The position numbers and the translations under genes are program-made. The notes below the pieces were generated by a model. It searched no databases, was not told the DNA's origin, and worked only from the letters and a program-made list of their open reading frames with translations. Below, in pieces: positions 1 through 38,080 of a stretch of 64,000 bases of DNA (the first letter of the stretch is position 1; each line of letters begins with the position of its first letter). The DNA is from a virus, in the IMG/VR virus record IMGVR_UViG_3300008255_000003, positions 32,001 to 96,000 of that record, one strand, 5' to 3'.

Positions 1-238
1 CAGGGCCTACGATCTAAAAGTCGGGATGTGTCTTGATGTGGGCGGCTCCGGCTATCCTTACTGGATAGCAGGCATAGAGAAGGGCCGTCAGAACGGCATT
101 GACGTCCTATTCTTAACATTTACTGATCACTCTGGCGTTACATTGCAAGCCCACTGGTTTGCAACGCGTCATGAGTGTTACGAGCTATAATAACGCAGCA
201 GACATGCAACGGTTGCATGTCTGCGCTTGGAGGTTGTG

Positions 239-1096
239 ATGCGTGAGTATATAGAGCGAGTAATTTTCACGACGGCAGTTGAGGCGTATGACTATCCTGG
301 CGTTGTGGTTGAGGAGCTTGAAGCGTTTGAGTGCGGCGGGCGCACTTGGCGCAAGGTCAAGATGGTCAATGAGCCCTATCGCATTGAGAATCAAATAATG
401 CGTTACGCTAGTGGTCTTTGCGGGGCTTGGGATGAAGATCCGCGAGTAGCAGAAGAGAGGCATCGCGTAGTAGAGGAGAAGTGGCGCGCGCTTGTCGCTG
501 AGCAGAAGGCTCAGATTGACGCCATAGATGTCGCTGATGACCTTGAACGCTATTTTAGGCGGAATGAACACTGTCTTGACTATAAGGCCAAGGCACATGC
601 TCGCGAGCGCATTGATGCTCTCGCAAAGCGAGATGCGAAGGCTGAGGCTGAGGCCAAAGCAAAAGAGATCGCGGAAGCAACGCCCAAGCTTCCCAACATC
701 ATATTCATCCCGATCTACCACAACATGCGGTTTTGTCGCTTTGAGATGTCTGTGGTTAAAGGCTTTGACTGGCAGAACAATGTCAAGGTGGATGGGGTGA
801 GTTTGTCTGCGGCTAGCGTCATCGCTGGCGAGTACGTCAGGGCGATCCCCTGGTGGGGCGATATGCCGCCGCAGCGTCTCTTTAGGGATCATGCTCATGA
901 CTTTCAATCATGGGAGCGTGTGACGTTTGAAGGCGAGGCGTACTACCGCGTAGGAAAGATGTTTACATACCCGCGCGAGTACATCGTTTATGACGCTGAC
1001 GGCAAAAAGGTCAGGCGATCAATGCGCCGACTAGATCTCTTTAGTCAGACAGCCCTTGAGTGGACCAAGATCTTTGACATCCCATCGCATCCTTAA
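239..1096 (+). CDS. Hypothetical protein
   Basis: Long ORF with GGAGG RBS at 229-233 directly after a palindrome hairpin. Confidence 0.65.
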   Translation: MREYIERVIFTTAVEAYDYPGVVVEELEAFECGGRTWRKVKMVNEPYRIENQIMRYASGLCGAWDEDPRVAEERHRVVEEKWRALVAEQKAQIDAIDVADDLERYFRRNEHCLDYKAKAHARERIDALAKRDAKAEAEAKAKEIAEATPKLPNIIFIPIYHNMRFCRFEMSVVKGFDWQNNVKVDGVSLSAASVIAGEYVRAIPWWGDMPPQRLFRDHAHDFQSWERVTFEGEAYYRVGKMFTYPREYIVYDADGKKVRRSMRRLDLFSQTALEWTKIFDIPSHP

Positions 1097-1142
1097 ACCC
1101 CTATAGCAAGGCCTGCAACCGTTGCAGGTCTTGGAGGTGTAT

Positions 1143-1541
1143 ATGACCAAGCCCAGGCACCTTAAGAAGCCGTGCGCCCAGTGCCCCTTCCGGGGGAATT
1201 GGCTGACGAAGGGATCAGCCATTGAGATCGTGACAGCCCTTCGCAATGACAAGCCGTTCTCGTGTCATAAGACGGTCAACTATGACCGCGAGCGCGACGG
1301 CATGACTGAGGCCTTCTGCGCAGGAGCCTTGGCTTCAATGCGAAAGTCTGGCGAGCTGTTTAATAACTTCGCCGTCCGCGTTCACGCGATGACCATGCGG
1401 GTCGATGGTTGGCCAGCTAACGTTGATGGTGAAGGCATCCCATCGCTCGATGAATGGATTGACCTCCATGATGACAATGGGCGGAGTCGATTCCCATCTG
1501 GTGAGGGGGTCGAGTTTGATGAGGAGTGTGATGATGAGTGA
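1143..1541 (+). CDS. Small Cys/His-rich, probably Zn-binding phage protein
   Basis: Motifs PCAQCPFR, FSCHKT, FCAGA; GGAGG RBS after the palindrome at 1114. Confidence 0.6.
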   Translation: MTKPRHLKKPCAQCPFRGNWLTKGSAIEIVTALRNDKPFSCHKTVNYDRERDGMTEAFCAGALASMRKSGELFNNFAVRVHAMTMRVDGWPANVDGEGIPSLDEWIDLHDDNGRSRFPSGEGVEFDEECDDE

Positions 1542-2349
1542 GTTTGAGATCTTCGCGCGCAAGTGGCAGCCTAATGAGGTGGTGTTGCCATGCCCGAGCG
1601 CACCAGCACTTAATGACATTCAGGCGGGGTGGCTCTGGCTGCTAGCGCTTGATATTGATCGAGTGCTTTGGGGTCGATGGGCATGGTGGCTTGAGCGTCT
1701 TGAGAAGCGCGACTTTGACACCATCAAGTCTTCTGACATCCCCAAGATCACATTCAACCTCTACCGAGGCCATGAGCCCCACCACAAGGCGCTCAAGATG
1801 CTCAACCTATGTGTTGATACCATTAAGCGCCGCGAAGGGCGCTACAGCGGCAATGGCGCGCTCATGGCGCTAATTGATTGGCTGTCTTGGTCTTTGGGTT
1901 TGCAGGATGAAGCTCCAGGCATAAAGGTTGAGACTCACCAAGAGCTTTATCAGACCTTCTGCCTTGATCTTATCATGGGCGCGCCTTGTGACTATTGGGG
2001 GATCTTACTCTCAGACCTCCAGCACGGCAAAGGCACCACATCGTTTTATCCGACGCCCTCCGAGGTTGTCACGTTATTGACTGACATCATATCTGAGCAG
2101 GATGGGCCTGCCATGAGGAGCGCTTACGATCCATGTCTGGGCACGGGCAGGGCTTTGCTTGAGGCGTCTAATCACTACCTGCTATTGAGCGGCCAAGATA
2201 TAGACAGCTCGGTGCTCAAGTGTGCAAAGCTCAACTTTGCGCTCTATGTCCCTTGGGCGATCGTTCCACCACCGACTGATGAAAAGGTTGTGACCGTTGA
2301 TTCATGTGCCGCAGATCTTGAGCTATTGGAGGGCCTGTTAGATGTCTGA
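1534..2349 (+). CDS. N6-adenine DNA methyltransferase-like protein (SAM-binding portion)
   Basis: FYPTP, YDPCLGTG and GQDID resemble HsdM-type motifs; no NPPY/DPPY seen. Confidence 0.6.
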   Translation: MSEFEIFARKWQPNEVVLPCPSAPALNDIQAGWLWLLALDIDRVLWGRWAWWLERLEKRDFDTIKSSDIPKITFNLYRGHEPHHKALKMLNLCVDTIKRREGRYSGNGALMALIDWLSWSLGLQDEAPGIKVETHQELYQTFCLDLIMGAPCDYWGILLSDLQHGKGTTSFYPTPSEVVTLLTDIISEQDGPAMRSAYDPCLGTGRALLEASNHYLLLSGQDIDSSVLKCAKLNFALYVPWAIVPPPTDEKVVTVDSCAADLELLEGLLDV

Positions 2350-2977
2350 GGTTGCAGTTGCGATGTCCAATGACAAGCTAAGGGCTAAGCTCTTAGATAA
2401 GGTTAACGACCACATCGAGATCTTAAAAGAGCGCGTGGATCTCGTTAAGACTGAGGAGAGCTTGATTGATTTGCTAGTGGCCGAGCTGACCAAGGCAGAG
2501 TATGAGCAGTGGGACTCAAGTGGTGAGCTGCCCTTGTTGATCTGTCTGTATATTGACGATAGCGATGTGGCTTATATTGAAAAGTCTCTAGTTAAAGCCA
2601 TAGACTTTGAGGAGAGGCGCAACGTCAGCTTAACCTTAATGATGGTCATCTCCTTTATAGCGGTGTGGCAAACAGATATGGTTCTGTCACTCTTGCTTGG
2701 TCCGTTCATCTTCGCGGCGTACTTCTTACCATTCCTCTATCAGGGCTATGGTGAGATTGACCGTAAGAGCCTAATCTCACTCCCAAACTTCGACAAGGCT
2801 GCGCAGTATTACTATGGTGCGAGGCAGGGCTTTAAGGATGAGCTTGATAGGGCTGAGGCGGATCGTAATGCCAATAAGATTGGGGCTGTAACCATATCCT
2901 CAGCAGGTGACGGAGGTGGTCAGTTAACGCAGGTGCAATCAGGTCAGCTTGAGGTCTTGAGTGACATAAAGTCTTAA
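2342..2977 (+). CDS. Hypothetical membrane protein
   Basis: Two adjacent hydrophobic segments; start overlaps the upstream stop. Confidence 0.55.
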   Translation: MSEVAVAMSNDKLRAKLLDKVNDHIEILKERVDLVKTEESLIDLLVAELTKAEYEQWDSSGELPLLICLYIDDSDVAYIEKSLVKAIDFEERRNVSLTLMMVISFIAVWQTDMVLSLLLGPFIFAAYFLPFLYQGYGEIDRKSLISLPNFDKAAQYYYGARQGFKDELDRAEADRNANKIGAVTISSAGDGGGQLTQVQSGQLEVLSDIKS

Positions 2978-3000
2978 GCTAACTTATTAGCAAGGATGTA

Positions 3001-3040
3001 AAAAAGAGGCCCCATGCAACCGTTGCATGGGGCTTTTCTT
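3001..3040. terminator. Bidirectional intrinsic terminator-like hairpin with palindrome core
   Basis: GCCCCATGCAAC-C-GTTGCATGGGGC with A-rich left and T-rich right flanks, between convergent ORFs. Confidence 0.75.
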
Positions 3041-3534: not shown

Positions 3535-4013
3535 TTGCGATAGTTCTTTACGCCTTCGCTAGCCTCAAGGGCCTCGTGCGCCGCGATGGCTGTGGCGATG
3601 ATCTTTATGAGTTGCGCTTTGGGGTCTGGGCTCTCACCTAGTCGGCTAGAGTATTGAGTAAGGATCTCAGACCATTCACTTGAGGTGTGTGCCATGTCAT
3701 GCCTCAAGCCACCCCAGATCGTCTTCTGCTTAAGGCGTTCAGCCTCAACAGCCTCTAGCATGGCCTTTTGCTTGGAGTCTGCCTTGGGGTCCGAGAGTTC
3801 ACCGTGATGGTCTGCGGCGACCCTGTTGTGGCAATATTCAGTGTCACGACATCGCCATGACATGATGTGCTCCGTGGCATCTTCATTGTCGTACTTGATG
3901 ATGATCTCATGCCTGGCAGCAGTATCATCTTCAATGATGCGACTGCAAAGCTCGCAAAACTCAGAGTATTCTGGAGAGACATGGTGAAGGATCTCGCGTT
4001 TAGTGTAGCTCAT
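3531..4013 (-). CDS. Hypothetical protein with Cys/His motifs
   Basis: CELC...CRDTEYCH; overlaps the sigma factor stop. Confidence 0.6.
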
Positions 4014-5746
4014 TCAAAGTTACCCGTAAGGTTGGATGGGATAAACTGCTCAAGAGCCTTCAAGCGTGATGGGTGCTTGAGTTTCTTGAGGGCCTTTGCT
4101 TCGATCTGCCGGATACGCTCCCGAGTAACGCTGAAGTCGTTTCCGACTTCTTCGAGAGTGTGATCGGTAGTATCACCTATGCCATAGCGAAGGCGCAACA
4201 CCCGTTCTTCACGAGCAGGAAGTGTGGATAAGATCTGCCTTGTAGCTTCGCTCAAGGTCTTACCTTCTATCGCTTCATGCTGGCCCTCATTGAGTACGTC
4301 CTCAATGGTGTCCTCAAGCGTGAAGTTGCCATCTCCTATTGTCTGGTTGAGGCTGACGGGTTCATAGGCAAGCTGGAGCATCTGACGCACCTTATCAACA
4401 TGGATTCCCATCTCGTCAGCGATCTCTTGCGGCTTAGGTGTTTCGCCTGACTTCTGAGCCATCGCCTTTTCAATGCGTTTGAGCTTATGGATGGTGTCGA
4501 TCATGTGGACAGGGATACGGATTGTTCGAGCCTGGTCTGCGATGGCCCTTGAAATGGCCTGCCTGATCCACCATGTGGCGTAGGTTGAAAACTTATAGCC
4601 GCGCTGATGCTCAAACTTATCAACTGCGCGCATAAGTCCGATGTTGCCCTCTTGGATCAGGTCCAGCAGTGGTATACCTCGGTGGTCATGCTTCTTGGCT
4701 ATGGATACGACCAGGCGAAGGTTTGATTGCACCATGACAGACTTGGCCCTCATCGCCAGATCTTCGCCTACTGATATGGCGGAGAATGCGATCTCAAGCA
4801 GGCTCATGGGTAACCCAAGCTCTCGCTCTATCGTATTCATCCTCTTAGTTGCCTGGATAAGATCGCCAAGGACAATGTGATGATTATGCTCGTTAACCTT
4901 GGTGCCATCGCAAGCCATTAAGGCGGCTTTCTTCATGCCCTTATTGAACATGGAGTTGATGAATTTGACCCTCTCCAAACTCACCATGAAGATGCCTTCC
5001 ATAGAACGGAGTTCAGCTTCAGCGAGTTTGGCCTCATTGTATTTTGACTTGAGGCCATTCGATATAAGGTCAACGTACTTCTTGGTGAAGTAAAACGAGC
5101 TAATGCCGTTGGTGATAACTTCGACCTCATCTGAGTTTAAGACTGGCGCGCCTATCCTTGAGGTGCTGCTTGTCCTTACTCGTTCAACGTCTTTAAGAAA
5201 CTCATTAAAGCGTTCGATGTTATCAAGCTCGAAAGCCTCCACCGCCTCGGGATCATTGAAGTCGATCTTCTCACCTGGCGCTGCTTGTAGCAGGTCGGAC
5301 GACTTAATCTTTCGCTTACTTAGAAGCGCTCCAATGAGTTGAAGCTCTTTAAGCCCATACTGTGTGCATAGGGTGGTGTTAAGGATGATGCTTTCACCGC
5401 TTGAGATTTGCTCGGAAGCTTCGATCTCTTCTGCCCTTGTGAGGAGCGGCACCCTGCCGATCATCCTTAGATAAGTCCTCACACTGTCACTGCCGGACAA
5501 GCTTCCATCATCAAGCTGACTGCGGCGTTCTGATGACATGATCTTTCGAGGTGTAGCTGCGGCCTGATCACCGATCACTACACCCATGCTGCTTAGGATG
5601 GTTTTAAACAGTATAATGGCTTGAGCGTGTGGATAGTCTGTAATGATGTTGTCCACATCGTGATGACTGATGAAGCCATCACGATAGCCCTTGTAGAATG
5701 TATGCTTAAGCCTTCCAAGCTTGAACCTATCCGTTGCGCCGCCCAT
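4010..5746 (-). CDS. rpoD: RNA polymerase primary-type sigma70 factor (578 aa)
   Basis: Region 1.2 [17 protein letters not shown]; region 2 [11 protein letters not shown]...[16 protein letters not shown]...[31 protein letters not shown]; region 4 TLEEVG...[20 protein letters not shown]; large non-conserved region. Confidence 0.95.
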
Positions 5747-5771: not shown

Positions 5772-6152
5772 TCATCCTGTATTGACGTTCTTGATTACCT
5801 CAAGCGTCACTGTCAGTGATTCTGCACCATTTGCACTGCCTGCGTCGAAGTCAATTTCAAGCATCACTAATACGCGGCTAAAGACTTTGGGAATCCCATC
5901 ACCAGATCGAACCTCTACGGTATAAACAGGCCACACTGAGTTAAACCTCTTGGTGCTATCGGGATGATTGACGATAAAGAAGCTATAGGCTGCAAAGGCA
6001 TCCTCTGGGGTGTCGTGTGGTTCGGTGGTGTGTGCGGAATAGTCTGTTGATATGTACTTACACATTTCATGCCCCCTGGGAATGTGCGCTAAGTCAATTA
6101 TTAACCTGATGCCTGTTACTTCATAGTCCTTATGCGCGTGCAACGGTTGCAC
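5772..6152 (-). CDS. Hypothetical protein (start uncertain)
   Basis: ORF upstream of the sigma gene; listed start lies in a palindrome copy, so the true start is probably downstream. Confidence 0.4.
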   Translation of the reverse strand: MQPLHAHKDYEVTGIRLIIDLAHIPRGHEMCKYISTDYSAHTTEPHDTPEDAFAAYSFFIVNHPDSTKRFNSVWPVYTVEVRSGDGIPKVFSRVLVMLEIDFDAGSANGAESLTVTLEVIKNVNTG

Positions 6153-6219
6153 GTTGACCTATGACTTCTTTGAGGCAAAATAGCCAAGTGCATTAAGTCA
6201 ATACACTGAGGGTATAATC

Positions 6220-7713: not shown

Positions 7714-9158
7714 TGTCTAAGTTAGATATGATCGAGAGCTACCTCCTCAGCGAGGCTCCACGCTGGAAGAAAGAAGGTGTAAGCCTTGAGAGTGACTACG
7801 CTAAGATCGCAGCTATGGCGGGCGACGGTCATCACTACTTAAGCTTCACCGCGATGCCCAAGCTTGGCATCAACCCGCAGTCCAAGCATGAGACGCCGCT
7901 CGGGATCTACACCTATGCAATGGCAGACCCTTGGTTTCAGAAGGTATGGGAGAATCAGCAGTTCCCCTTTGTTGCCGATCAGCCTTATGTTTAAGTCATG
8001 AAGGCTAAGAAAGAGTCAGACATCATCATCCTTGGTGAAAGCTCAATCATCCAAGGGGCGTCGCGCATTAGGACGCTTAACGATCAACACAAGCGCTACA
8101 TCGAGCAAGACTTTGTATTCGGTGAGGCCTTTAAAGAGTTCAAGTATAGGAGCTTACCTTGGGTTGATAGCGCCAGTGGTGGAGTGCGTGAGTTCAGGTG
8201 GTATTGGGCGTTCACCATGCAGCTATCTAAGATGATGAAGGCTGAGCGCCTGTCGTCTATCGCTTACTGGGGCAAGCGCATGATGGGCGATCGCATCATG
8301 ATCGTTGAAGATCGCGGTAGCGGCACCATCCATCATAATGAGCCCAACCAGGCCGTCATCTTGTCGATGGCGGCTGTTGATCATGTGATGCAAACGCAGA
8401 ACCCCCTCCGTGGTGCCAAGAGGCCATTCCCTGGCCACGGTACCCCCAAGTCAGGTCGAGCATTCCAGAGGGCCAAGTTACTCATCAGCGAGAAGATGCG
8501 AGTAATCAGGGACGCCGCGAAGGTGCTTAATGACCTCAAGAGCACCTTCGCACTCTCAGCTCAACTCTTTAAAGCTATGGATCTGGCTAAGAAGTCTGAC
8601 ACTGAGATCATCTCAAGCATCTCCACTGCGGCTGGGATTGATACTGAGAGTAAGACCTTTGGGGATATTGATGACCTTTATTTTACGCTGGGCAAACTTG
8701 TGGCGTTCTGGAATAGCAACACTGAGCTATCGGACATCTTCTTGCGCGGTAAGGATGCTCAGTACGTTGGTGGGTTTATTGATAATGTTGTCGATCTTGT
8801 CTTTATCGAGTTTGATGACATCACGCTGGAGCGAGTGAATATCTTTAACAGCCTTAATGACTTGGAAGGCCTGTCTGGTGTGATGCTTGGCTTTATGAAC
8901 ATGACCATTAGGGATTGCGTTATAGACTTGAATGCACTTCAAGACCTCGCTCTCACCGAGCCCACTAAGAGGCTTGTGTTTGATCGGTGTCGTTTCAAGC
9001 TCAAGGCTATCCCAAGTATTGCGGCTGGTACAACCCAACCCAACGAGAGTCAGTTGCGCGAGATCTCAAAGATCTTTGTTGGCGAAGTCAACGGCACCAA
9101 ATATCGAGATGGAATCAGGCCAGCATTCTTCAAGGATTGCACCTTCGACGTTACCTGA
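7713..9158 (+). pseudogene. Paralog family member B, interrupted by in-frame TAA at 7992-7994
   Basis: GTT TAA GTC ATG aligns with GTT CAA GTC ATG in member A; the frame continues with family motifs to 9158. Confidence 0.85.
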
Positions 9159-9177
9159 ACATGCAACCGTTGCACGT

Positions 9178-9846
9178 CTAGGCCTGTATCTCTTGCTCTG
9201 ACGCGATGAGCGCATCAAAGTCTTCAAGCTCAAGCGGCTTCTTGTATTCTATCTGCCCAAAGGCATCCTCAACGTCTTGGTGCGCCCTGGCTATCTCAAG
9301 CGTGATCCTTTCAAACTGATAAGACCTAACACCCATGACTCGCTCAAGGATGATACTGGTGAGCGATGCCAGACCTACTATGGATAGCGCCACTGCTAAT
9401 GGTCCAATGGAGTAACCAACAAAAGCCGTTAGGATCATCGCCATAGACATTAAGCACATCACACCGAGTAGCACTGAGGTTAAGCGCTTGAGGCGGTCAG
9501 ACTTATGTTGAGCCTCTTCTAGCCTTCTGGAGTTCTCTCTAAAGATGTCTAGCGATGCTTGTTTGGCGCGCGCCATTTCACGCTCAAGCGCGCGCCTCAC
9601 CTCTCTTTCAAGCTCAGCGCCTTTAGAGGTGTCTTTCATAATCCTACGCTCAACCAGATCTGGAGGTGGTGTAAATCTCTTGATCTCCATCATCTCAGAC
9701 TCTCGCCATCCAACACTTTTGCGCGCGACGGGTTTGATGCTTGCTGTGATCTTGAGATCGTTACCATCGAACTTTTTAAGCAGGATGTCATCGAGCGGCT
9801 CTCCGCGCTGATCGGCAAGAGCCTTGACTAGGTGCTTGAGTCTCAT
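9178..9846 (-). CDS. Coiled-coil membrane protein
   Basis: Helical charged region followed by two hydrophobic segments. Confidence 0.6.
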   Translation of the reverse strand: MRLKHLVKALADQRGEPLDDILLKKFDGNDLKITASIKPVARKSVGWRESEMMEIKRFTPPPDLVERRIMKDTSKGAELEREVRRALEREMARAKQASLDIFRENSRRLEEAQHKSDRLKRLTSVLLGVMCLMSMAMILTAFVGYSIGPLAVALSIVGLASLTSIILERVMGVRSYQFERITLEIARAHQDVEDAFGQIEYKKPLELEDFDALIASEQEIQA

Positions 9847-11507: not shown

Positions 11508-12391
11508 GTGAAAGGGCTACCACACAGTAGCCCTGATTCATTGACGTTAAACTACTCGGCCCAAACCTGCAACGGTTGCATCCCTACTTCACAGCCTCAC
11601 GACATCCTAGACACTTTCCGAGCACAGCTTACGGCGGCACTCACTCACTAACCTCTAAATCCCTTATATCATCCCTTATTAAATCCAACCAAATCAACTC
11701 CAGAATCAACTTTTACCTCACACCATAACTTTCCCTACTCCATAGAATGCCACCCATCCGACATTCACACTTCAAACATCCCCAAGACCACATCAAATGA
11801 TCATCACTTTCAACCCCTATAAAAACACCCACTCTTCATAGACCCCCTCAACCAACCCCCCTTCATGGTGCATAACCACCCCATACATCCTATGGTGCAA
11901 TACATCGTATAGAACATCATCCCTTACCCATACTGACACCGTAGTGAGTTACGTCTGCACCATAACGAGTGACGATTACACCATAAGGCCTCTATGGTGC
12001 ATGATGACGGGAAAAGACATTTCGCTCCGCACCCCCACCCCCCTTTGAAAAAACTCAGGGGGGAGCTGCTCTGTTTTTTTTCCCAAGCACCATTGGGGGA
12101 TTTTTCAAAAGGGGCAGGGTGTGTCCCTATGGTGGAGGCATAGAGTCCTATGGTGGAGGCATAGAGTCCTATGGTGGAGGCATAGAGTCCTATGGTGGAG
12201 GCATAGAGTCCTATGGTGGCGGGAGGGGGTCGCGCGAGGGGAGTGACCTGTGGTGGTGGGGGTATGAGTGTACGGGGAGTGTGCGGGGGTCAATGTCAGA
12301 CGTGCAACCGTTGCATGTTGGAATGATGGGGGTCGGTGTTAGAATGGGGTTCGTGGCGAGATGTAAACAACGCACCATAGAGAGGTATGGG
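11508..12391. other. Non-coding region with skew switch and repeated motifs; candidate replication origin
   Basis: Top strand C/A-rich to about 12050 and G-rich after about 12110; 13 CACCAT/ATGGTG copies; imperfect inverted repeat 12040-12114; a palindrome copy near each end (11568, 12303); lies between divergent genes. Confidence 0.55.
12125..12219 (+). repeat. 21-bp tandem repeat TCCTATGGTGGAGGCATAGAG, about 4.5 copies
   Basis: Units start at 12125, 12146, 12167, 12188, plus a partial unit at 12209; each full unit holds CTATG-N7-CATAG. Confidence 0.95.
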
Positions 12392-13843: not shown

Positions 13844-13885
13844 TCATCACGCACGCAACGGTTGCATGTCATAAGGAATCCGACT

Positions 13886-15671: not shown

Positions 15672-15765
15672 TAAGATGCAACGGTTGCATGTTTGATATA
15701 GGTTGTGTTCTTATCAATGCGGGTCTGATGTTGTGTCAGACCCGTAAACTTTGGAGGTTAGTGAT

Positions 15766-15933
15766 ATGGAATGGAACGAGCGCGAGAATCTTGTTGCGGC
15801 TCTAACCAAGCAAGATAAGAAGGGCTTTATCACCATAGATGAGACGCTGCATGTTGGTGGTGGCTTCAATATGGGAAGCCTTGAGGAGGTCGAGGTTAAG
15901 ATCAGGACGCATATCGCAAAGAATAGGGCCTGA
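15766..15933 (+). CDS. Small hypothetical protein
   Basis: TTGGAGG RBS; flanked by palindrome copies at 15677 and 15938. Confidence 0.55.
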   Translation: MEWNERENLVAALTKQDKKGFITIDETLHVGGGFNMGSLEEVEVKIRTHIAKNRA

Positions 15934-16053
15934 AACACGCAACCGTTGCATGTCTAAAATATGGCTTGCGCGGCTCATGCTTCTGGGTTTAGTCTTCTTG
16001 TGTTGCCGGGCGCGTTGTTAAACGTCCGGCTTGGACTTCAAGTGAGGTAGGTA

Positions 16054-17277: not shown

Positions 17278-17341
17278 AACCCATCACAACCCAAACAGGG
17301 ATGCAACGGTTGCATCCCTGTTCATTCTTCAAGGTGAAGAT

Positions 17342-20528: not shown

Positions 20529-20570
20529 AAAAACAGCCCTCATGCAACAGTTGCATTGGGGCTGTTTTTT
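20529..20570 (+). terminator. Intrinsic terminator-like hairpin with variant palindrome core
   Basis: ACAGCCCTCATGCAAC-A-GTTGCATTGGGGCTGT followed by a T run. Confidence 0.7.
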
Positions 20571-20613: not shown

Positions 20614-23367
20614 GTGCCCACCAAACCCCAGAAACACTATATGGAGTGTGACATGAGTTCTCTTGATAATAAGTGCGGTTGGCGTCAAGTCTCTCACCAT
20701 GAAGACCCCTACGCTGACATTACTTTTGAGACTTCTGACGTGACGATTAAGGGCGGTAAGGACAAGCCTGACTTCGTGCAAAAGGGTGTGTCGTTCCCAT
20801 CCTTCTACAGCGAGACGTCGCGTAAGGTCGTGGCCAATAAATACTTCTACGGCACCAGGGGTTCTAGGGAGCGCGAGCACTCGATGGCTCATATCGTCGA
20901 TCGTGTGTCTGCCAAGCTTGCAACCTGGGGTGAGGAGCAGGGCTACTTCCCTGACGGTGATAGGCAGCGCGAAGAGTTCTTTAATACGCTTCGTTTCACA
21001 CTTATCAATCAGTACGCCGCCTTTAACTCACCAGTGTGGTTTAACCTGGGCACTCCAGAGCCGCAGCAAGCAAGCGCGTGTTTCATCAACTCGGTCGAGG
21101 ACTCGATTCAGTCGATCATCAACCTTGGCGCTACTGAGATGATGGTGTTTAAGGGCGGATCAGGGGCCGGTGTGAACGTCTCAAGGCTGCGCGGCAAGCA
21201 AGAGCCCCTTAAGGGTGGGGGCGTCTCTAGCGGTCCACTGAGCTTCATGAGGGCCTGGGATGAGGCGGCAGGATCAATCAAGTCAGGCGGCAAAACAAGG
21301 CGTGCGGCTAAGATGGTGGTGATGGACGTTGATCACCCTGACATTATGGAGTTCATCGCCTGTAAGGGTATTGAAGAGAAAAAGGCCCAAGCCCTTATCG
21401 CTGCTGGTTTCGATGGGAGCTTTGATGCTGAGAATGGCGCGTATGCAACCGTTGCATTCCAGAATGCCAATCACTCGGTGTGCATGTCTGATGAGTTCAT
21501 GGACGCAGTGGTCAACGATGATCACTTCAGGCTCGAATGGCGTACAGATCCTAGCAAGGCTGAGGTGGTCAAGGCTCGCAACATCATGTCTGCCGCATGT
21601 CAATCATGCTGGGAGTCGGGCGACCCTGGCGTCCAGTTTGGTGACACCATCAATAAGTGGCATACCTGCCCCAACGATGGCCGTATCGTGGCATCTAACC
21701 CATGCTCCGAGTATTTCCACCTCAATGACACGTCGTGCAACCTGGCCTCACTTAATCTTATGAGGTTCGTGATATTTGAGAACGGTCGCGCAGTGGGCTT
21801 TGATTTTGCTGCGTTTTACAATGCTAGCTATCTCATGGCCCTCGCCTTGGACATCATCATCGACAAGGCCCATTATCCAACTGAGCAGTTGGCAATCGAG
21901 ACTAAGAAGTCTCGCACCATAGGTTTAGGCTTTGCAAACCTTGGTGCTGTAATCATGGCTCTCGGCCTGCCTTATGGTTCTAAAGAGGCGTGCAGGCTCG
22001 CAGCCACGATCACCCATGTGATGAATGCAGCGGCCTACATTAGAAGTGCTAATACCTGCTTAGACCTTGAGCTTGCGCCATTCGAGCGACTTGATCGCAA
22101 CCGTGAGGCTATGTCTAACGTTCTTGGGATGCACGCTGAGGCATTTTTAACGCTTAGGGATGAGACGGATGACAAGCGTTTTGGCTTGGACTCCAATGTT
22201 ATCGACATGAGCTTGAGGGCTTTGTCGAACCTGTCAAGAAATGTGCGTAAGGGTGCCAATCTGCGCAACGCTCAAGCAACTGTTCTTGCCCCGACTGGCA
22301 CCATCTCATTCATGATGGGGTGCGACACTACTGGCGTTGAGCCTGTCCTTGGCCTTGTGAGCTACAAGCAGTTGGTTGGTGGAGGCTTCCTTAAGCTGAC
22401 ACTCGACTGCACCAGATCTGCGCTGCTCAACCTCGGCTACTCGCCCAGCGAGACTGAAGAGGCCCTTTGTCACATCGAAGACCACGACAGCCTTGATGGC
22501 TTTAAGCTCAAGCGTTCAACTGATGCTGAGGTGTTCAAGACATCATTCTCAACATCCCCAGAATATACTCTCGACTGGAAGGCTCATGTTGACATGATGG
22601 CAGCCTGTCAGCCTGCGCTTAGTGGTGCAATATCAAAGACGGTTAACATCAATGAAGATGCTACGCCGAAGGATATTGAGGACATCACCTTCTATTCTTG
22701 GCGCGCTGGGCTCAAGTCGGTGGCGATCTACCGTAACAACTGCAAGCAGTCACAGCCTCTCACGCTCAAGTCTAGTGGTGATAAGAATGTCGAAGATCCG
22801 ATCGAGTCCTTAAGGGAGCATGGTGTCTTAGTGCATGGCGAGCGCAGGAGGCTTGAGAAGACGCGCAAGAGCAGGACGCATACCTTCTCGATCGGCGGTC
22901 AGAAGGGCTACATCATCATTGGTGAGTATGAGGACGGCTCGCCTGGTGAGATCTTTATCAACTTTGCCAAGATGGGGTCTACAGCGCGCGGCTTTGTTGA
23001 CTCGTTCGCCATAGGTCTAAGCCTTGGCCTTCAATATGGGGTGCCGCTTGAGGTGTTCCATAACAAGTATCGCCACATGAGCTTTTCACCATCAGGCTTC
23101 ACGGACAACCCAGAGATCCGCAAGGCCAGCTCCATCCCCGATTACGTCTTGCGCTGGGTTGCGCAAGAGTATTTCAATGATGGTGCAGAAGAGCGTGACG
23201 AGGCCCAAGATGATCAGGTGGTGTCTGACATTGCCAAGATCAGGTCCAAGTCAAAGCTCAAGACAAGCGCCACTGGGGATCTGTGTTCTGTCTGTGGGGG
23301 TCAGTTAGTCCAGGCTGGAACGTGTCACACTTGCACTGAATGCGGCTCTTCTACGGGCTGCGGCTAG
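20614..23367 (+). CDS. nrdJ: Class II (adenosylcobalamin-dependent) ribonucleotide reductase
   Basis: FNSPVWFN, SACFI, IKSGGKTRRAAKM, SNPCSEY, CNLASLNL, LAPTGTIS, SGAISKTVN; C-terminal TSCPD-like domain and CxxC...CxxC ribbon. Start may be at 20641 or 20653. Confidence 0.95.
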   Translation: MPTKPQKHYMECDMSSLDNKCGWRQVSHHEDPYADITFETSDVTIKGGKDKPDFVQKGVSFPSFYSETSRKVVANKYFYGTRGSREREHSMAHIVDRVSAKLATWGEEQGYFPDGDRQREEFFNTLRFTLINQYAAFNSPVWFNLGTPEPQQASACFINSVEDSIQSIINLGATEMMVFKGGSGAGVNVSRLRGKQEPLKGGGVSSGPLSFMRAWDEAAGSIKSGGKTRRAAKMVVMDVDHPDIMEFIACKGIEEKKAQALIAAGFDGSFDAENGAYATVAFQNANHSVCMSDEFMDAVVNDDHFRLEWRTDPSKAEVVKARNIMSAACQSCWESGDPGVQFGDTINKWHTCPNDGRIVASNPCSEYFHLNDTSCNLASLNLMRFVIFENGRAVGFDFAAFYNASYLMALALDIIIDKAHYPTEQLAIETKKSRTIGLGFANLGAVIMALGLPYGSKEACRLAATITHVMNAAAYIRSANTCLDLELAPFERLDRNREAMSNVLGMHAEAFLTLRDETDDKRFGLDSNVIDMSLRALSNLSRNVRKGANLRNAQATVLAPTGTISFMMGCDTTGVEPVLGLVSYKQLVGGGFLKLTLDCTRSALLNLGYSPSETEEALCHIEDHDSLDGFKLKRSTDAEVFKTSFSTSPEYTLDWKAHVDMMAACQPALSGAISKTVNINEDATPKDIEDITFYSWRAGLKSVAIYRNNCKQSQPLTLKSSGDKNVEDPIESLREHGVLVHGERRRLEKTRKSRTHTFSIGGQKGYIIIGEYEDGSPGEIFINFAKMGSTARGFVDSFAIGLSLGLQYGVPLEVFHNKYRHMSFSPSGFTDNPEIRKASSIPDYVLRWVAQEYFNDGAEERDEAQDDQVVSDIAKIRSKSKLKTSATGDLCSVCGGQLVQAGTCHTCTECGSSTGCG

Positions 23368-23430: not shown

Positions 23431-23458
23431 TTGACATCATTTTCTAACTTTGCATAAT
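23431..23458 (+). promoter_or_regulatory. Sigma70-type promoter
   Basis: TTGACA-N16-CATAAT. Confidence 0.65.
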
Positions 23459-23791: not shown

Positions 23792-23960
23792 TGACCTAAA
23801 ACATGCAACGGTTGCATGTCTGACTTTGGAAGTTCTATGTGGCTTGATGTCATGATCGGCAATCTCTTGAACGAGCTTGCGTGTTGTTTGTCTTCGTGCA
23901 GACTGCTTGTGCTCGTGCTCTTGATCCTGGCCATTGAGCCAACGTCAAACAAGGTGGATA

Positions 23961-26474: not shown

Positions 26475-26550
26475 CGCCTCACGCGCCAATGGTCGAGTGT
26501 TTTGGTTGTGAGACATGCAACGGTTGCGTGTCTCTATTTTGGAGAACATT

Positions 26551-27408: not shown

Positions 27409-28046
27409 GCAAGAATCGAAGGCTTCCACGCATACGGTTTTCGGACACGCACCCCAAGAAACAGGCCGAATATCTCTTGGCTCATGACAGGTATTATGAC
27501 GCCATCAAGGCCTGTTATGGCATTAAGGGTGAAGCAGAGCGATCTTTGATGATGCGCACCATTGCTAAGAAGCGCGATGAGGTGGAAAGCTTCTTACTCA
27601 ACGGGCGCTCAATGCCAGCCTTCGGTGGAACGGAGAAGCAGAACGCATGGTGCGAGAACATATTTTTAGACACCTTGCTTTGGCTTAGGGCTTGGCGTCA
27701 CTGGGCCTTAAACGCAGACATCAGGCACGGGCGCGTTAGCTCTGACTTTAGGCGTCAAAACATGCTGGAGTTGGCTGACATTTTCGAGCTTGAGAACGCC
27801 TTGGCTTGGATTGAGGTGGTTGACGTCCTTATCCCCATGACGGTGCATGGCCCTTACACCTTCAAAGAGCATCCAGACCGTTCAGACGTTCCTGGCGAGA
27901 TCGACGTTAGCCTTTATGCCCACCATGAAGAGCTGGCCTTTGAGAGCATCTCTGGATTCTTGAAGGCTCGTGAGAGTGTCTTTCTGTATGGTCATCCATA
28001 CGGCTTTAAAAAATATTACTTAATAAGTATTGACATTAAAGCTTGA
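27405..28046 (+). CDS. Hypothetical protein
   Basis: 213 aa; contains GGTEKQNAW. Confidence 0.6.
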   Translation: MSKNRRLPRIRFSDTHPKKQAEYLLAHDRYYDAIKACYGIKGEAERSLMMRTIAKKRDEVESFLLNGRSMPAFGGTEKQNAWCENIFLDTLLWLRAWRHWALNADIRHGRVSSDFRRQNMLELADIFELENALAWIEVVDVLIPMTVHGPYTFKEHPDRSDVPGEIDVSLYAHHEELAFESISGFLKARESVFLYGHPYGFKKYYLISIDIKA

Positions 28047-28057
28047 GCGATCATAAT
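28030..28057 (+). promoter_or_regulatory. Sigma70-type promoter with a palindrome copy near the predicted start site
   Basis: TTGACA-N16-CATAAT, then a half-site and the full palindrome at 28066. Confidence 0.7.
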
Positions 28058-28100
28058 GCAACCCATGCAACGGTTGCATCCATAACTGATAAGGGGCTTT

Positions 28101-28966: not shown

Positions 28967-28992
28967 CATCACAAGCCTCCTATGATACAGTA

Positions 28993-29029
28993 AGCCAGAC
29001 ATGCAACGGTTGCGTGTCTGGCTTTTTTT
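28993..29029 (+). terminator. Intrinsic terminator-like hairpin with palindrome core
   Basis: AAGCCAGACATGCAAC-G-GTTGCGTGTCTGGCTT followed by a T run. Confidence 0.75.
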
Positions 29030-32434: not shown

Positions 32435-32479
32435 GCAAAAAACCCCAACATGCAACGGTTGCATGTAGGGCTTTTTTTT
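32435..32479. terminator. Bidirectional terminator-like hairpin with palindrome core
   Basis: A run, imperfect stem, T run, between convergent ORFs. Confidence 0.7.
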
Positions 32480-32809: not shown

Positions 32810-32837
32810 TTGACAATAAATATGATGCGCTTAAGAT
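32810..32837 (+). promoter_or_regulatory. Sigma70-type promoter with AT-rich upstream element
   Basis: TTGACA-N16-TAAGAT preceded by TTTTAAGTAAATAA. Confidence 0.65.
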
Positions 32838-33456: not shown

Positions 33457-33499
33457 AGAGCCTATGACATGCAACCGTTGCATGTCATAGGCTCTTTTG
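33457..33499 (+). terminator. 19-bp perfect hairpin with palindrome core and T tail
   Basis: AGAGCCTATGACATGCAAC-C-GTTGCATGTCATAGGCTCT then TTT. Confidence 0.75.
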
Positions 33500-34322: not shown

Positions 34323-35329
34323 AACAAGACGCCTACCATATCTTCTATGAGCCCACTGGACTTGGTGAACCAACGCCCCTTAGCACCGTTAGGATTAACG
34401 ATGTTGACGTGGTGGGCATGTCTGGTCAGCTCTCGATTCCACCTGATAAAGTCATGCAAATGTGGCTTCTTATTTCAGGTGGCGCAACCTTTAGGAAGTT
34501 GGTTAGTGTTAGCAGGTTGCCGAGCGGCACAGTTAGGGCCTTTGTAAGGCTACTTGCTAACAATAATGTCATTATCCCTAGGGAGTGCGCCATGTCTGAC
34601 AGTGATAAGGAAATTCTGGAGGCTGAAGAGGCTGAAGAGGTTGAAGGCTCCGATGGTGTTGATGGACAGGATGACGAAGGTTTAGAAGGGCTTGAGGAGT
34701 CAGAAAGCTCACCACAAGTCACGCAGCTTGAGAAGCTGAACAAGCTCCACCAGCTAGGTCTAAGTCTGCTGGAGTTGTCTGAGAGCGGTCGCGATATGGC
34801 CGCCTTCGCCGCCTATGCCCTTGATGAGTACATTGAGGAGGCTAGAGAGGCGTTTGATCGAGTCATGAGCTATGGGAGCGGCTGCGAGCCTGGAATGACC
34901 ATCTCTGAGGCTCTTGAGTATGAATCAACCGCTCAAACCATCCCCATCACCCGCGTGTTTGCGCACTTTGAAAACTTCGATCATAGCGACGCGGCAGATG
35001 TCTTTGTTGTGTCGTGCATGAATATGTTTATTGACTATCTCTCAGACTATGCCTCGGAAGGTGTCTGGGTGGTCGATCATGATGCTGAGCCTGAAGGTGA
35101 CGGATCTGTTGCTTCAATGTCGCTAATGGTTGAGTCTGAGCGTGTTGAGGCGCTTGAGTGCTTACTCACAGTTGATATGGATAATATGGAGGTGGCGTTC
35201 TCGGGTGACGGCGTGAATATCGTGGTTGCCATAGATGAGGACAGGTACGGACTCATGATCACGCGCCTTATGAGTCATATCATCAGGGCGTTCTACACCA
35301 GCGAAGAATACGAGCACATTGAGCAGTGA
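34319..35329 (+). CDS. Highly acidic hypothetical protein
   Basis: D/E-rich linker; 336 aa. Confidence 0.6.
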   Translation: MKQDAYHIFYEPTGLGEPTPLSTVRINDVDVVGMSGQLSIPPDKVMQMWLLISGGATFRKLVSVSRLPSGTVRAFVRLLANNNVIIPRECAMSDSDKEILEAEEAEEVEGSDGVDGQDDEGLEGLEESESSPQVTQLEKLNKLHQLGLSLLELSESGRDMAAFAAYALDEYIEEAREAFDRVMSYGSGCEPGMTISEALEYESTAQTIPITRVFAHFENFDHSDAADVFVVSCMNMFIDYLSDYASEGVWVVDHDAEPEGDGSVASMSLMVESERVEALECLLTVDMDNMEVAFSGDGVNIVVAIDEDRYGLMITRLMSHIIRAFYTSEEYEHIEQ

Positions 35330-35399
35330 CTTGATGTGGCTAGTGGTTAAGATGAAAAGGACATGCAACCGCTGCATGTCCTTTTCTTTGGAGGTAAGC

Positions 35400-36287
35400 A
35401 TGAGTGATGTGACTGGGTTGATGTACTTCTGCCGCGAGCTTACGATCTCTAATGGTGAACGATGTATTGCCATTGGAAACAGCGATAAGGGGATGGTGGT
35501 TATCATGCTTAAACACCTCAAAGGTGATGACATACCGCTGACTATCCTTGGGCCTGGTGTTTACATAGATAAGATCTCAAAGCGTATGCCTGCGCGATCT
35601 CATGTTCGCAAGGTGCTATCCAGATACACAGTGATGGGGATGGCGCATAACGGACCTGTCTTCATTCGTGAGAATGGGCGCGTGCTCTATGCTATAAGGC
35701 CATTCACCATGCCCCCAGCGACGAAGCTTTATCCTGGCGACATTGTATCGGTGGGGGGTAGGAGTCTGCCGCTAGTTTACCTTGGTCAGTACAAGGGTCA
35801 GATCTATCTAGGCTCTTGGTCTGAGGTGAATGATATGGCGTTGGCTTCAAGCATGGTCGCCTATGGCACCGAGCCTTATGCAAACTCCCATCTCTACATT
35901 TATCTCTTTGGTGGTGATGAGTCTGAGATCTCTTACATCTCACCGCGCGAGGGTAATGATCATGACGATGAGGAAGCGCGCGCCGTTCAGAGAAGATTGG
36001 TTGCCAGGCCTGCCATTGGTTCGGTTGTGGGTATCAGGGGTTTTAAGGGGTACAAGCTCCTAGTTTCCGGCTTTAGTCAGACGGAATATGGGAACGTCGA
36101 GATGTACGTTGCGGGCCTACTAAGCCCTGATGAGCTTCCGGGTGCAAAGACACTAAGGAAGGCGATGGATACATCGTTCTGGACGCTGGTGTCTCTACCC
36201 GTTGAACGCGTCTACAACATCAGGCCAGCCACACCAAAGACTAAGGCTGATGTGATGAGGTTGGGCGCCTTGAGGTATGTTGAATGA
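35400..36287 (+). CDS. Hypothetical protein
   Basis: TTGGAGG RBS right after the palindrome hairpin at 35354-35386. Confidence 0.65.
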   Translation: MSDVTGLMYFCRELTISNGERCIAIGNSDKGMVVIMLKHLKGDDIPLTILGPGVYIDKISKRMPARSHVRKVLSRYTVMGMAHNGPVFIRENGRVLYAIRPFTMPPATKLYPGDIVSVGGRSLPLVYLGQYKGQIYLGSWSEVNDMALASSMVAYGTEPYANSHLYIYLFGGDESEISYISPREGNDHDDEEARAVQRRLVARPAIGSVVGIRGFKGYKLLVSGFSQTEYGNVEMYVAGLLSPDELPGAKTLRKAMDTSFWTLVSLPVERVYNIRPATPKTKADVMRLGALRYVE

Positions 36288-36769
36288 AAATCATGATGAC
36301 GCTTCTCGCCTTAATCACCTTATCTTGCGCACAGGACAAGGTGGCGCTCAAACCAAAGCCAGCTATTGAGCTTAGGGAGATCTCACCGACTCCACCCGTG
36401 GCTGACGGCATGGTAAGGGCCTTGCCAGTAAAGCCTGATGCTGAGCAGGAGTGGTGTATCGGAGTCTTAAGTTTACCACCTGATGGCATCGTACTGAGTG
36501 AATCGAAGGCGCTCCAGGCTGCGAGACTTAGAGTTTATGCAGAAGAGATGAATGTTGCAGCGTCATACAACAAGACATATTGTGAGATGTGGTCTGAAGC
36601 TGCGTTGCGGCGGGTCAATGCCCTTGAGTCTAGGGAACTGGAGAGAATAGAAGATGAGCAGCGGTGGTGGAACAGACACAAGCTGAACATCACATTTATA
36701 GGCGGCCTCACCTTGGGATCTGTGATTACGATTCTGGTGGTTTATGGCGTCAATCAGGCTGGAGATTAA
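36284..36769 (+). CDS. Lipoprotein with C-terminal TM segment (u-spanin-like architecture)
   Basis: Signal MKIMMTLLALITLS-C; C-terminal ITFIGGLTLGSVITILVVYGV. Confidence 0.55.
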   Translation: MKIMMTLLALITLSCAQDKVALKPKPAIELREISPTPPVADGMVRALPVKPDAEQEWCIGVLSLPPDGIVLSESKALQAARLRVYAEEMNVAASYNKTYCEMWSEAALRRVNALESRELERIEDEQRWWNRHKLNITFIGGLTLGSVITILVVYGVNQAGD

Positions 36770-36770
36770 A

Positions 36771-37103
36771 ATGCCTAAAAAAAGTTTTAAGAACAATAAG
36801 ATCAGAAGGCCCTACTCAACCAACGGTGAGCTTGTAAGCTCCGAGCTTTGGAGTGCACGTCAGTCTACTCACAAGAGGTTCCTTAAGGCGTGTCACATGA
36901 CACCTTTAAGCCCTTCTGACTGGCGAAACATCATCGCGCAATCTTTGGGCCTTCCACCGAGCAAGGCTCATGTTCGATACTTCAGCGCGGATCTTTGCAA
37001 GCAGGTTGAAGAGCTTTTGAGTCGCAAGGAAGTTGAGCTTAGGGCTCGTGGTAAATGGGGCATTGAATACAAAAGGAGGAATTGTGCGAGAAAATCTAGC
37101 TGA
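36771..37103 (+). CDS. Small basic hypothetical protein (weak resemblance to the DUF3268 C-terminal part)
   Basis: GGAG RBS; W..IIAQSLG...AHVRYF...C. Confidence 0.5.
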   Translation: MPKKSFKNNKIRRPYSTNGELVSSELWSARQSTHKRFLKACHMTPLSPSDWRNIIAQSLGLPPSKAHVRYFSADLCKQVEELLSRKEVELRARGKWGIEYKRRNCARKSS

Positions 37104-37386
37104 CAGACTTTGTGACACCTTACATCTCGTCTATGAGAAGCACCTTAAGGGTGGTGGCTATAAGGTGCAGCACACTTGGGAGCTGAGGAGTCTTGCCTAT
37201 GATGCTGTGGCTGGTGTTCCTTGGCAGCGCAAAGTGAAGTCTCCCTTCACCGCTAACGCAAGTGTAAGTATGCTTCGGGATACCATCACCAAAGTAGAGT
37301 CATACCTTGATGACCCAAGCCAGATCGATGCCCAGTTTGAGGCTTCTGAGGTCTTCTCGAAGGATGATAGAAAAAAGATCAAGTAA
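37084..37386 (+). CDS. Hypothetical protein
   Basis: AGGAGG RBS before GTG at 37084. Confidence 0.55.
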   Translation: MRENLADRLCDTLHLVYEKHLKGGGYKVQHTWELRSLAYDAVAGVPWQRKVKSPFTANASVSMLRDTITKVESYLDDPSQIDAQFEASEVFSKDDRKKIK

Positions 37387-37479
37387 GTTGTCAACAAGTA
37401 TTGATAGAAAATAATTTAGTGTCTATCCATAGAAGGTCGCTCATGTTGTATGAGCGGCCTTAAATTTTGGAGAAAAAAA

Positions 37480-38028
37480 ATGAACGATCGTCTCAAGCGC
37501 TTTGCGGGTTTGATCCGCGTAGTCATGTCAAGCGTGGATCCCTATTTTATGAAGCTCTCGTACAGGTACGAGGGCTTCAATGGCTTGCTTATTGACGCAT
37601 CGAAGGGCATTGACCTAAAGGTGGTCAATGAGCGTCACTTGCTGGTCGCTCAGATTGACCAGCACACGCTTGGCGTCGATGCTGTCTATCTCGCATGGTT
37701 GGAGGCGTTAGACTTCAACAAGGATACGGTCCAAGTCAGGCAGGCGCTTGAGTGTGCGTTCTGGGCTCTTGTCCCCATGTTGGCAGGTCCAGACGTCACA
37801 GATCGGTCTATCGAGCGCGTGAGGCATAATATCTGCGCCCGAGGCCTTGGGGTGTGGCCTGACAATAGACCTACGGCTCAATCACTCCCTGGTTTTGAGA
37901 TCTTTAGAGCAACGCGCGCGAGGCCTGTCCCTGAGCTGATCTATACCCCCGCCATGAGAAAGCGAGACGAAGATCTTGAGCGGGCCAGGAATGACTACTT
38001 GCTGATCTCAAACATCTTAGATCTATGA
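37480..38028 (+). CDS. Hypothetical protein
   Basis: TTGGAG RBS. Confidence 0.6.
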   Translation: MNDRLKRFAGLIRVVMSSVDPYFMKLSYRYEGFNGLLIDASKGIDLKVVNERHLLVAQIDQHTLGVDAVYLAWLEALDFNKDTVQVRQALECAFWALVPMLAGPDVTDRSIERVRHNICARGLGVWPDNRPTAQSLPGFEIFRATRARPVPELIYTPAMRKRDEDLERARNDYLLISNILDL

Positions 38029-38035
38029 TGTGGTC

Positions 38036-38080
38036 GCAAAAAACCCCAACATGCAACGGTTGCATGTTGGGGTTTTTTGC
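38036..38080. terminator. 22-bp perfect inverted repeat, bidirectional terminator-like, with palindrome core
   Basis: GCAAAAAACCCCAACATGCAAC-G-GTTGCATGTTGGGGTTTTTTGC between convergent ORFs. Confidence 0.8.

Follow-up and report, generated by a model that had tools for sequence, protein, structure and literature searches.

The window analyzed here comprises 64,000 bp, bases 32001 to 96000 of a 129,896-bp IMG/VR virus record (IMGVR_UViG_3300008255_000003) from an uncultivated phage. Its subject is a palindromic 13-bp word, the core TGCAACNGTTGCA, which recurs throughout the phage genome, bare at many sites and extended into long hairpins at others. Positions below are those of the window unless given as genome positions. 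The record closes via a 123-bp terminal overlap and describes a myovirus, with genes for a tail sheath, baseplate, portal, protease, and major head protein. The phage also encodes a class II ribonucleotide reductase and a replication-recombination module composed of a DnaC-like loader, DnaB, a primase, an SF2 helicase, UvsX, a Holliday junction resolvase, a Cas4-like nuclease, and a RuvC-like resolvase. At 4010 to 5746, in a short minus-strand operon, lies the gene for a full-length primary-type sigma factor resembling RpoD (578 aa, with regions 1.2, 2, 3, and 4), whose best structural relatives are gamma-proteobacterial RpoD proteins. Neither tRNA genes nor Rfam families were found in the genome, the largest open reading frame (ORF) of which, at 1201 aa, has no family match.

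The core occurs 30 times in the window at no more than one mismatch, against 0.25 expected, and 50 times across the genome. The conserved element exceeds 13 bp, since the 50 sites share a symmetric consensus, rACATGCAACSGTTGCATGTy, with symmetry out to ±11. The central position is a single G:C pair in either orientation (G at 29 sites, C at 20, A at one) and shows no link to the direction of transcription. Over-representation is confined to the full dyad. Half-site enrichment was rejected, half-sites being found at their expected rate. All 42 copies that fit TGCAA-N3/4-TTGCA have the N3 spacing and none has N4. The copies are evenly spread, with a coefficient of variation (CV) of spacing of 0.60 versus 0.97 ± 0.13 for random placement, and none of 5000 random sets was as low. 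Most of them (84%) sit in short intergenic spacers. The eight that lie inside genes, including those for the reductase and the primase, are read in two frames, encode A-T-V-A or Q-R/P-L, and tend to fill long stretches otherwise without a site. Among core variants in the genome, nine are uncompensated single transitions versus one compensated double, and two recur (GCG three times, CGCAAC four times). The lone compensated variant, TGCAAT-C-ATTGCA (L007:9927-9939, genome center 104932; about 0.14 expected by chance), is found within a gene, 52 nt ahead of its stop codon, and has the half-site type of the phages RcKickapoo and DLP_5 discussed below. A pattern search with the 19-mer in IMG/VR, JGI metagenomes, and GTDB genomes gave only single chance matches, which argues that the word is not a host repeat. 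No second repeated high-information motif was found in the intergenic regions, and a sigma54-like or −35/−10 reading of the word was rejected on inspection.

At 12 of the 29 sites that follow a plus-strand gene, the center is 9 to 12 nt past the stop codon, which means that the 21-bp site begins at or in the stop codon itself. The distance from center to the next start codon is 22 to 39 nt at 22 of 25 sites. Typically, then, the element starts directly after a stop codon and ends 5 to 10 nt before the next ribosome-binding site. Counted with our own ORF calls, the word is found in 25 of the 61 co-directional gaps that measure 15 nt or more; among convergent junctions it is present at 7 of 11, and among divergent ones at 5 of 10. 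At least one called convergent/divergent pair (15683, 15944) is really co-directional. There, the site pattern is better fitted by a plus-strand ORF of 55 aa (15767 to 15933), preceded by a GGAGG ribosome-binding site, than by the overlapping 74-aa minus-strand ORF (15714 to 15938), and once it is accepted both adjoining dyads fall at the usual 11 to 12 nt past a stop codon. Thirteen paralogous genes in the genome share an N-terminal ESY leader, and six of them, starting at genome positions 11, 9801, 14756, 17239, 38220, and 44392, have a dyad in their upstream spacer.

The initial annotation had listed eight sites at which the core is flanked by site-specific complementary arms and had concluded that the palindrome is selected to fold as a hairpin. 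Reading and scoring bear out the arms of all eight, which measure 12 to 23 bp. These sites are 198 to 224 (13 perfect pairs without a T tail, just before a ribosome-binding site; −21.4 kcal/mol, z −4.8), 1107 to 1133 (13 pairs, one of them G:T, with arms that leave the ACA/TGT consensus in a compensated manner), 3009 to 3033 (12 perfect pairs), 17294 to 17322 (14 pairs, GGGA/TCCC replacing ACA/TGT, no clear T tail), 28992 to 29024 (28993 to 29025 in pair scoring; plus strand, 16 pairs with T:G at ±6), 33457 to 33495 (plus strand, 19 perfect pairs and a T tail), 35354 to 35386 (plus strand, 16 pairs with A:C at ±2), and 38035 to 38081, which has 23 perfect pairs where 22 had been counted. All eight are predicted to fold as RNA hairpins of −21 to −38 kcal/mol, with z scores of −4.8 to −9.7.

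With an expectation obtained by pairing each left flank with right flanks taken from the other sites, perfect pairing beyond the consensus (from ±11) of at least 3 bp was found at 13 of the 50 sites versus 1.4 expected, and of at least 6 bp at 8 versus 0.04 expected. Altogether about 17 sites, mostly at genome 23.6 to 70 kb, have arms of their own, while the remaining 33 show the conserved dyad and no further arms. Covariation is evident in the alignment of all 50 sites, where 0 of 500 shuffles match the observed value, but the signal comes from those 17 or so sites only. At the 33 short-arm sites, Watson-Crick counts at positions ±7 to ±15 equal the shuffled expectation, so there is no covariation, and A:C mismatches outnumber G:T (32 to 19). 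Position ±7 is paired in only 18 of the 33. Many bare sites would therefore form a stem of only 5 bp (about −2 kcal/mol), compared with the 9 bp and C-S-G loop into which the consensus folds at −10.4 kcal/mol. Most of the long arms pair perfectly by Watson-Crick rules, and their mismatches comprise about 12 G:T versus 4 A:C, a partly hand-made count in a class whose very choice favors G:T. Selection for a hairpin is thus upheld at about one-third of the sites, where the core forms a tip with a predicted 3-nt loop, but it is not supported as the reason why the core is conserved. Likewise, the argument that a double-stranded DNA operator would not need covariation reaches only a minority of sites, the other 33 being without any.

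Some of the arm-bearing sites resemble terminators, as had been noted. A T tail or two-sided A/T tails are present at 3021, 20549, 26522, 29008, 32457, 33476, 35370, and 38058, and three of these (3021, 32457, and 38058) are tips of bidirectional terminators between convergent genes, with T tails on both strands. The site at 20532 to 20566 is a terminator tip whose core has the central A, again with T tails on both strands; that at 26510 to 26534 (plus strand) has the GCG variant of the core, arms of 12 bp, and a T tail. The hairpin centered at 29008 is the tip of a strong terminator, its T7 tail followed by a ribosome-binding site, and at 35370 a T-rich tail continues into one. In all, U tracts follow 9 to 10 long hairpins, eight in the window plus one at genome position 25030, and these core-tipped hairpins are, as read from their sequence, intrinsic terminators for the host polymerase. 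At the other 40 or so of the 50 sites, a stable hairpin with a U tract was not found. Regulated termination or antitermination is possible. The terminators at 32442 to 32471 and 38035 to 38081 have an identical 19-nt left arm (cgcaaaaaaccccaaca plus core), which indicates duplication or gene conversion between sites.

A census of about 30 terminator loci in the genome puts these hairpins in perspective. Besides the 9 to 10 with the core at their tip, eight further terminators have a core within 45 nt, five in the order core then terminator and three in the reverse order, and about 12 have none within that distance, so that some 21 terminators in all lack the core in their hairpin. In three co-directional cases a core is followed by a full terminator and then a gene. 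Site and terminator are merged in about half of the spacers that need both. The remaining arm-bearing sites include several stem-loops just 5′ of ribosome-binding sites. A further one, at genome position 120736 (approximately 120713 to 120760), forms a core-tipped hairpin of 24 bp (−34 kcal/mol, z −7) that would pair the GGAGG ribosome-binding site of the following 358-aa gene and is a candidate translational control element.

Ordinary promoters are also present. Strong sigma70-type promoters that match TTGACA-16-CATAAT exactly or nearly so, each preceded by AT-rich DNA, are grouped at genome 55 to 70 kb, within the stretch that holds most of the arm-bearing sites; they are found at 23431 to 23458, 28030 to 28057, 32810 to 32837 (plus), 32816 to 32789 (minus), and 37388 to 37415. 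Each clustered promoter precedes one or two genes and then a core-tipped terminator, beyond which the genes have no promoter of their own. The genes past the terminators at 26522, 29008, and 35370 start right after the T tract and are promoterless, so they would need read-through. Four bare sites adjoin sigma70-type promoters directly, in two fixed geometries. In the first, the center is at about −43: the dyad at 6135 to 6155 (center 6145), in a divergent region, ends 2 nt ahead of the −35 element of TTGACC-16-CAAAAT, and that at 12299 to 12319 (center 12309) ends 2 nt ahead of the −35 element of TTGGAA-16-TAGAAT. In the second, the center lies just past the predicted start site, at about +8 for the core at 28062 to 28082 (center 28072; promoter TTGACA-16-CATAAT, 28030 to 28057) and about +9 for the dyad at 41080 to 41100 (center 41090; promoter TTGAGA-17-TAAGAT, 41046 to 41074). 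By their sequence context these are operator-like positions.

The word is not confined to this phage. We examined 50 kb each of Rhizobium phage vB_RleS_L338C, Rhodobacter phage RcKickapoo, and Stenotrophomonas phage DLP_5, which contain 24, 16, and 16 copies of TGCAA-N3/4-TTGCA, respectively, with at most 0.1 expected in each. L338C has TGCAAC-NN-GTTGCA 17 times and TGCAAC-N-GTTGCA, identical to the word here, seven times; RcKickapoo has TGCAATCGATTGCA 13 times; and DLP_5 has TGCAAT-NN-ATTGCA 14 times, its center being TG at seven and CA at six. The L338C segment (1 to 50000) thus holds N3 copies, centered on A or T, and N4 copies, with varied centers, together in one genome. As in the present phage, the relatives have dozens of evenly spaced copies with an orientation-free center, some of them intragenic: one site occurs every 2 to 3 kb, with a spacing CV of 0.51 to 0.65. 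All three have DnaB, the primase, the SF2 helicase, UvsX, and TerL in common with the present phage, at 23 to 41% identity, as well as the order UvsX, Holliday junction resolvase, Cas4, RuvC; one word has been conserved between phages of which even the shared proteins are so dissimilar. Moreover, a dyad stands directly after the RuvC-like gene both here and in RcKickapoo, and the primase-gene dyads of these two phages both fall within one linker, at different codons some 20 residues from each other. The longer module order at 51934 to 63842 and L007:865-3477, in which an organizer-like protein precedes the eight proteins named at the outset, is the same as in RcKickapoo and DLP_5, but here it belongs to a myovirus.

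The differences are equally clear. This phage has N3 spacing only, and its word is enlarged by an ACA/TGT shell that the relatives lack. The intergenic share of copies is 84% here versus 30 to 45% in the relatives, where 55 to 70% of sites lie within ORFs. Long site-specific arms, including terminators, are found at one-third of the copies here; in the relatives, arm extension is 0 to 2 bp, with one nested terminator in L338C, a terminator-like hairpin with a T tail around the copy at 44357. Finally, this is a 130-kb myovirus, whereas the relatives are annotated with siphovirus-type tail genes. No close relative was found among cultured phages at the DNA level or in IMG/VR by protein; a DnaB relative at 61% identity was found only in Logan, and DnaB-linked IMG/VR loci at about 30% identity have no such dyad. 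We found no description of TGCAA-type words in the searchable literature.

Genome-wide dyad words are known in a few phages and plasmids, and their reader and purpose are mostly unexplained. The closest published in form are the repeats of Cluster O mycobacteriophages, more than 30 invariant 17-bp inverted repeats (TGTTCGGNNNCCGAACA) in a lytic-type genome, with function and reader unexplained, about one-third of them intragenic and their center without orientation to transcription (PMC4351075). They differ in being of unrelated sequence and phage lineage, and no hairpin extension or terminator use is reported for them (PMC4351075). In site logic, the closest systems are KorB operators and stoperators. 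The KorB operators OB of the IncP plasmid RK2, TTTAGC(C/G)GCTAAA, are 13-bp palindromes with a central C/G (PMC2680271, PMC11790492), and, as here, each replicon has many of them, partly close upstream of a −35 element and partly at a distance from any promoter (PMC2680271). That system, however, belongs to a plasmid and has one-quarter as many sites, and the present phage has no detectable ParB_N, KorB, or HTH_ParB domain. Stoperators, 13-mers that number more than 20 in the Cluster A mycobacteriophages L5 and Bxb1 and are placed at promoters and in the short spaces between genes (PMC9283540), are duplex DNA read by one phage protein, the monomeric immunity repressor of temperate phages (PMC9283540). 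They are asymmetric and oriented with transcription, while the word here is palindromic, and no integrase was found. Membership in either class therefore fails, on the defining protein for KorB operators and on asymmetry for stoperators. Intrinsic terminators offer a likeness at 9 to 10 sites, as a hairpin and U tract at gene ends, but terminators as such do not share an invariant tip; the core is missing from about 21 other terminators of this genome, and a U tract from about 40 core copies. By comparison, the lattice of L338C, RcKickapoo, and DLP_5 has the same half-sites, and this phage shares with it half-site dyads in dozens of copies, an even spacing of about 2 to 3 kb, and the module; it departs from it in that its centers are not N4 (none) and its copies not mostly intragenic (8 of 50).

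We give about even chances to the reading that the core is a duplex-DNA docking site for a phage protein, with RNA hairpins built on it at some gene boundaries. The core would be this phage's version of a dyad-symmetric word, TGCAA-N3-TTGCA, written along genomes every 2 to 3 kb and read on duplex DNA by a putative two-fold symmetric phage protein, acting perhaps in regulation, perhaps in genome architecture. In about 17 of the 50 copies, the dyad is prolonged by its flanks into a long hairpin that would work in RNA: 9 to 10 as terminators, one hiding a ribosome-binding site, and the rest as stem-loops just upstream of ribosome-binding sites. As a DNA site the core would be older than this phage, and the hairpin arms a lineage-specific second layer acting in RNA. 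Reading of a duplex-DNA dyad is suggested by the absence of covariation at 33 sites, the uncompensated variants, the orientation-free center, the intragenic copies, and the armless relatives. It is further suggested by the enrichment of the full dyad alone, the even spacing, the shared module, the occurrence of core and separate terminator in both orders alongside some 21 terminators with a coreless hairpin, and the operator-like positions at promoters. Protein docking, its effect, and the reason for nesting hairpins on the site are here deduced from sequence. The nesting of the core in terminators could reflect economy of space, or it could couple occupancy with read-through. Since the same core occurs both bare and embedded in hairpins, the genome offers a natural experiment on DNA versus RNA reading, and once the reader is found, a feature that cultured phages of Rhizobium, Rhodobacter, and Stenotrophomonas have conserved would be accounted for.

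Several observations weigh against this reading. L338C accepts both N3 and N4 spacing, a latitude that a hairpin loop would allow more readily than a rigid dimer. The core may have a function in the 9 to 10 terminators, of about 30, that contain it, instead of being nested there to save space, and the layout of the early units, with a sigma70 promoter, one or two genes, a core-tipped terminator, and promoterless genes, calls for read-through. An RNA role would fit as well with three operon starts (28072, 41090, and genome position 23632), where transcription is predicted to begin at the foot of the hairpin, on its 5′ side. A further point is that our search for the reader identified none. Using Pfam or PHROGs on about 130 ORFs, we matched proteins that include the RuvC, Holliday junction resolvase, and Cas4 proteins, methyltransferases, and the DnaC-like loader. 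Six-frame searches of the genome for ParB_N, KorB, and HTH_ParB gave no match at E values up to 0.1, and no LacI domain is present in it. The only helix-turn-helix (HTH) detectable with Pfam belongs to a 105-aa XRE-type protein, which nothing ties to the sites.

Other routes to the reader gave leads at best. Searches by phmmer with the HTH and ParB proteins of the relatives, including the ParB-like gp114 of DLP_5, returned only noise, and the proteins of about 470 aa encoded upstream of DnaB in the three relatives have no detectable kinship to each other or to proteins of this phage. No integrase or tyrosine recombinase (PF00589), the partner of integron attC-type cassette sites, was matched in the genome, nor a Y1 (IS200/IS605-type) transposase (PF01797), the partner in REP/RAYT systems. 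The ESM Atlas yields a weak replisome-organizer lead for a 326-aa protein whose own gene carries a dyad. The candidates for a reader are this organizer-like protein, encoded at 51934 to 52914, the XRE-type HTH protein, encoded on the minus strand at genome 21703 to 22020, and many ORFans.

An alternative that we consider unlikely, though worth keeping in view, is that the core supplies an RNA hairpin with its apical stem and triloop, through which a phage factor would control termination, antitermination, processing, or mRNA stability at gene boundaries. The selected arms at 17 sites, with U tracts at 9 to 10 of them, speak for it, as do the start of sites right after stop codons, the promoterless genes past the terminators at 26522, 29008, and 35370, and the predicted start sites at hairpin bases; the lean of long-arm mismatches toward G:T does so weakly, given how the class was chosen. 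These points are outweighed at the 33 bare sites, where covariation is lacking and many stems would be short and weak, and by a loop center that is C or G independently of the direction of transcription. Nor would an RNA element be expected in eight copies inside genes, in relatives that keep the word mostly intragenic and armless, or in the five copies directly before a complete, separate terminator. Among the first genes after the sigma70-type promoters, where an N-like protein for a lambda nut/boxB-type hairpin was sought, we saw no arginine-rich motif by eye.

Quite unlikely, in our estimation, is a version in which a single phage protein would recognize the word in two settings, on duplex DNA and at terminator tips (or on the non-template strand during passage of the polymerase), its occupancy setting read-through. 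If true, an ancestral DNA lattice would here underlie a termination switch that is genome-wide and addressed by sequence. Core-tipped terminators separate the sigma70-driven early genes from the promoterless genes downstream, and it is there that occupancy would set read-through.

We regard as improbable that the word acts as a single-stranded DNA (ssDNA) hairpin or cruciform, read by the primase, by a replisome organizer with its loader, or by a RuvC-type resolvase, in which case the lattice would set priming, helicase-loading, or junction-resolution points every 2 to 3 kb. The word does travel with the module of DnaB, primase, helicase, UvsX, resolvase, Cas4, and RuvC, it is evenly spaced and present on both strands, and the coexistence of N3 and N4 centers in L338C, the copy in the organizer-like gene (an identity resting on the ESM Atlas lead), and the dyads after RuvC-like genes all fit. 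However, palindromes of 13 to 21 bp rarely extrude as cruciforms, the promoter-linked geometries and the strong intergenic preference are left unexplained, and the link to the module could equally come from common descent of the phage backbone.

More improbable still is a self-propagating or growing palindrome, spread by duplication or gene conversion, with arms made by template switching at quasi-palindromes and terminating ones kept by selection. It would accommodate the left arm common to the terminators at 32457 and 38058, the recurrent variants, the mostly perfect Watson-Crick arms, and the paralogous sites at genome positions 9768 and 129751, at which the right flank is conserved in both and the left flank is complementary to it only at 9768. 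It is contradicted by a core that stays exact while flanks have fully diverged, by intragenic copies that cannot be 13-bp insertions, by conservation of the word across phages whose proteins are only about 25% identical, and by a genome in which no Y1 transposase, tyrosine recombinase, or ParB was found. A promoter, whether an N4 virion RNA polymerase (vRNAP)-like hairpin promoter, as had been proposed, or a site for the phage sigma factor, has in its favor the distance of 22 to 39 nt from center to start codon at most sites, the 3-nt loop, and the lack of any other high-information intergenic motif, but it is barely credible: no vRNAP or T7-like RNA polymerase was found (PF00940 had no match in the genome, nor in control genomes, and the largest ORF has no family match), the phage sigma factor is RpoD-like and ordinary TTGACA-16-CATAAT promoters are present, sites lie inside genes, at called convergent junctions (at least one such call having proved co-directional), or before separate terminators, and N4-type promoters, with a 5- to 7-bp stem and a 3-nt loop, resemble the consensus here in form only, being few, oriented, and upstream of early genes, unlike 50 sites spread over all modules and in part convergent or intragenic.

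Several bare sites of the window follow stop codons closely: at 11 nt in the case of the dyads at 15934 to 15954 (CGCAAC variant, past the small plus-strand ORF described above), 42124 to 42144, and 55966 to 55986, which is followed by a separate terminator (56003 to 56024); at 10 nt for 60684 to 60704, also followed by a separate terminator (60709 to 60730); at 12 nt for 15673 to 15693, then a separate hairpin; and at 17 nt for 13850 to 13870, a second CGCAAC variant. The dyad at 9158 to 9178 fills the gap between two convergent stop codons, and that at 23800 to 23820 stands ahead of a ribosome-binding site. Two 10-bp dyads are found at 47397 to 47417, ahead of an SNF2-type helicase gene, and at 62331 to 62351, between the SF2 helicase and UvsX genes. 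Among copies within genes, that at 21440 to 21460 is in the ribonucleotide reductase gene (encoding A-T-V-A), that at 56841 to 56861 is in the primase gene, within the linker that follows the zinc ribbon, and that at 52333 to 52353, a CGCAAC variant, is in the gene for the 326-aa protein, which lies upstream of those for the DnaC-like loader and DnaB; the bare core at 45276 to 45296 is inside a called ORF, the gene call being uncertain.

The window also contains an 880-bp gene-free stretch (11508 to 12391), in which the top strand changes from G-poor to C-poor and 4.5 perfect copies of a 21-bp tandem repeat, CCTATGGTGGAGGCATAGAGT, occupy 12126 to 12219. This stretch is a candidate replication origin. 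Dyads lie on both of its flanks, at 12309 and at 11574, the latter a bare core (11564 to 11584) 67 nt upstream of a minus-strand gene start.

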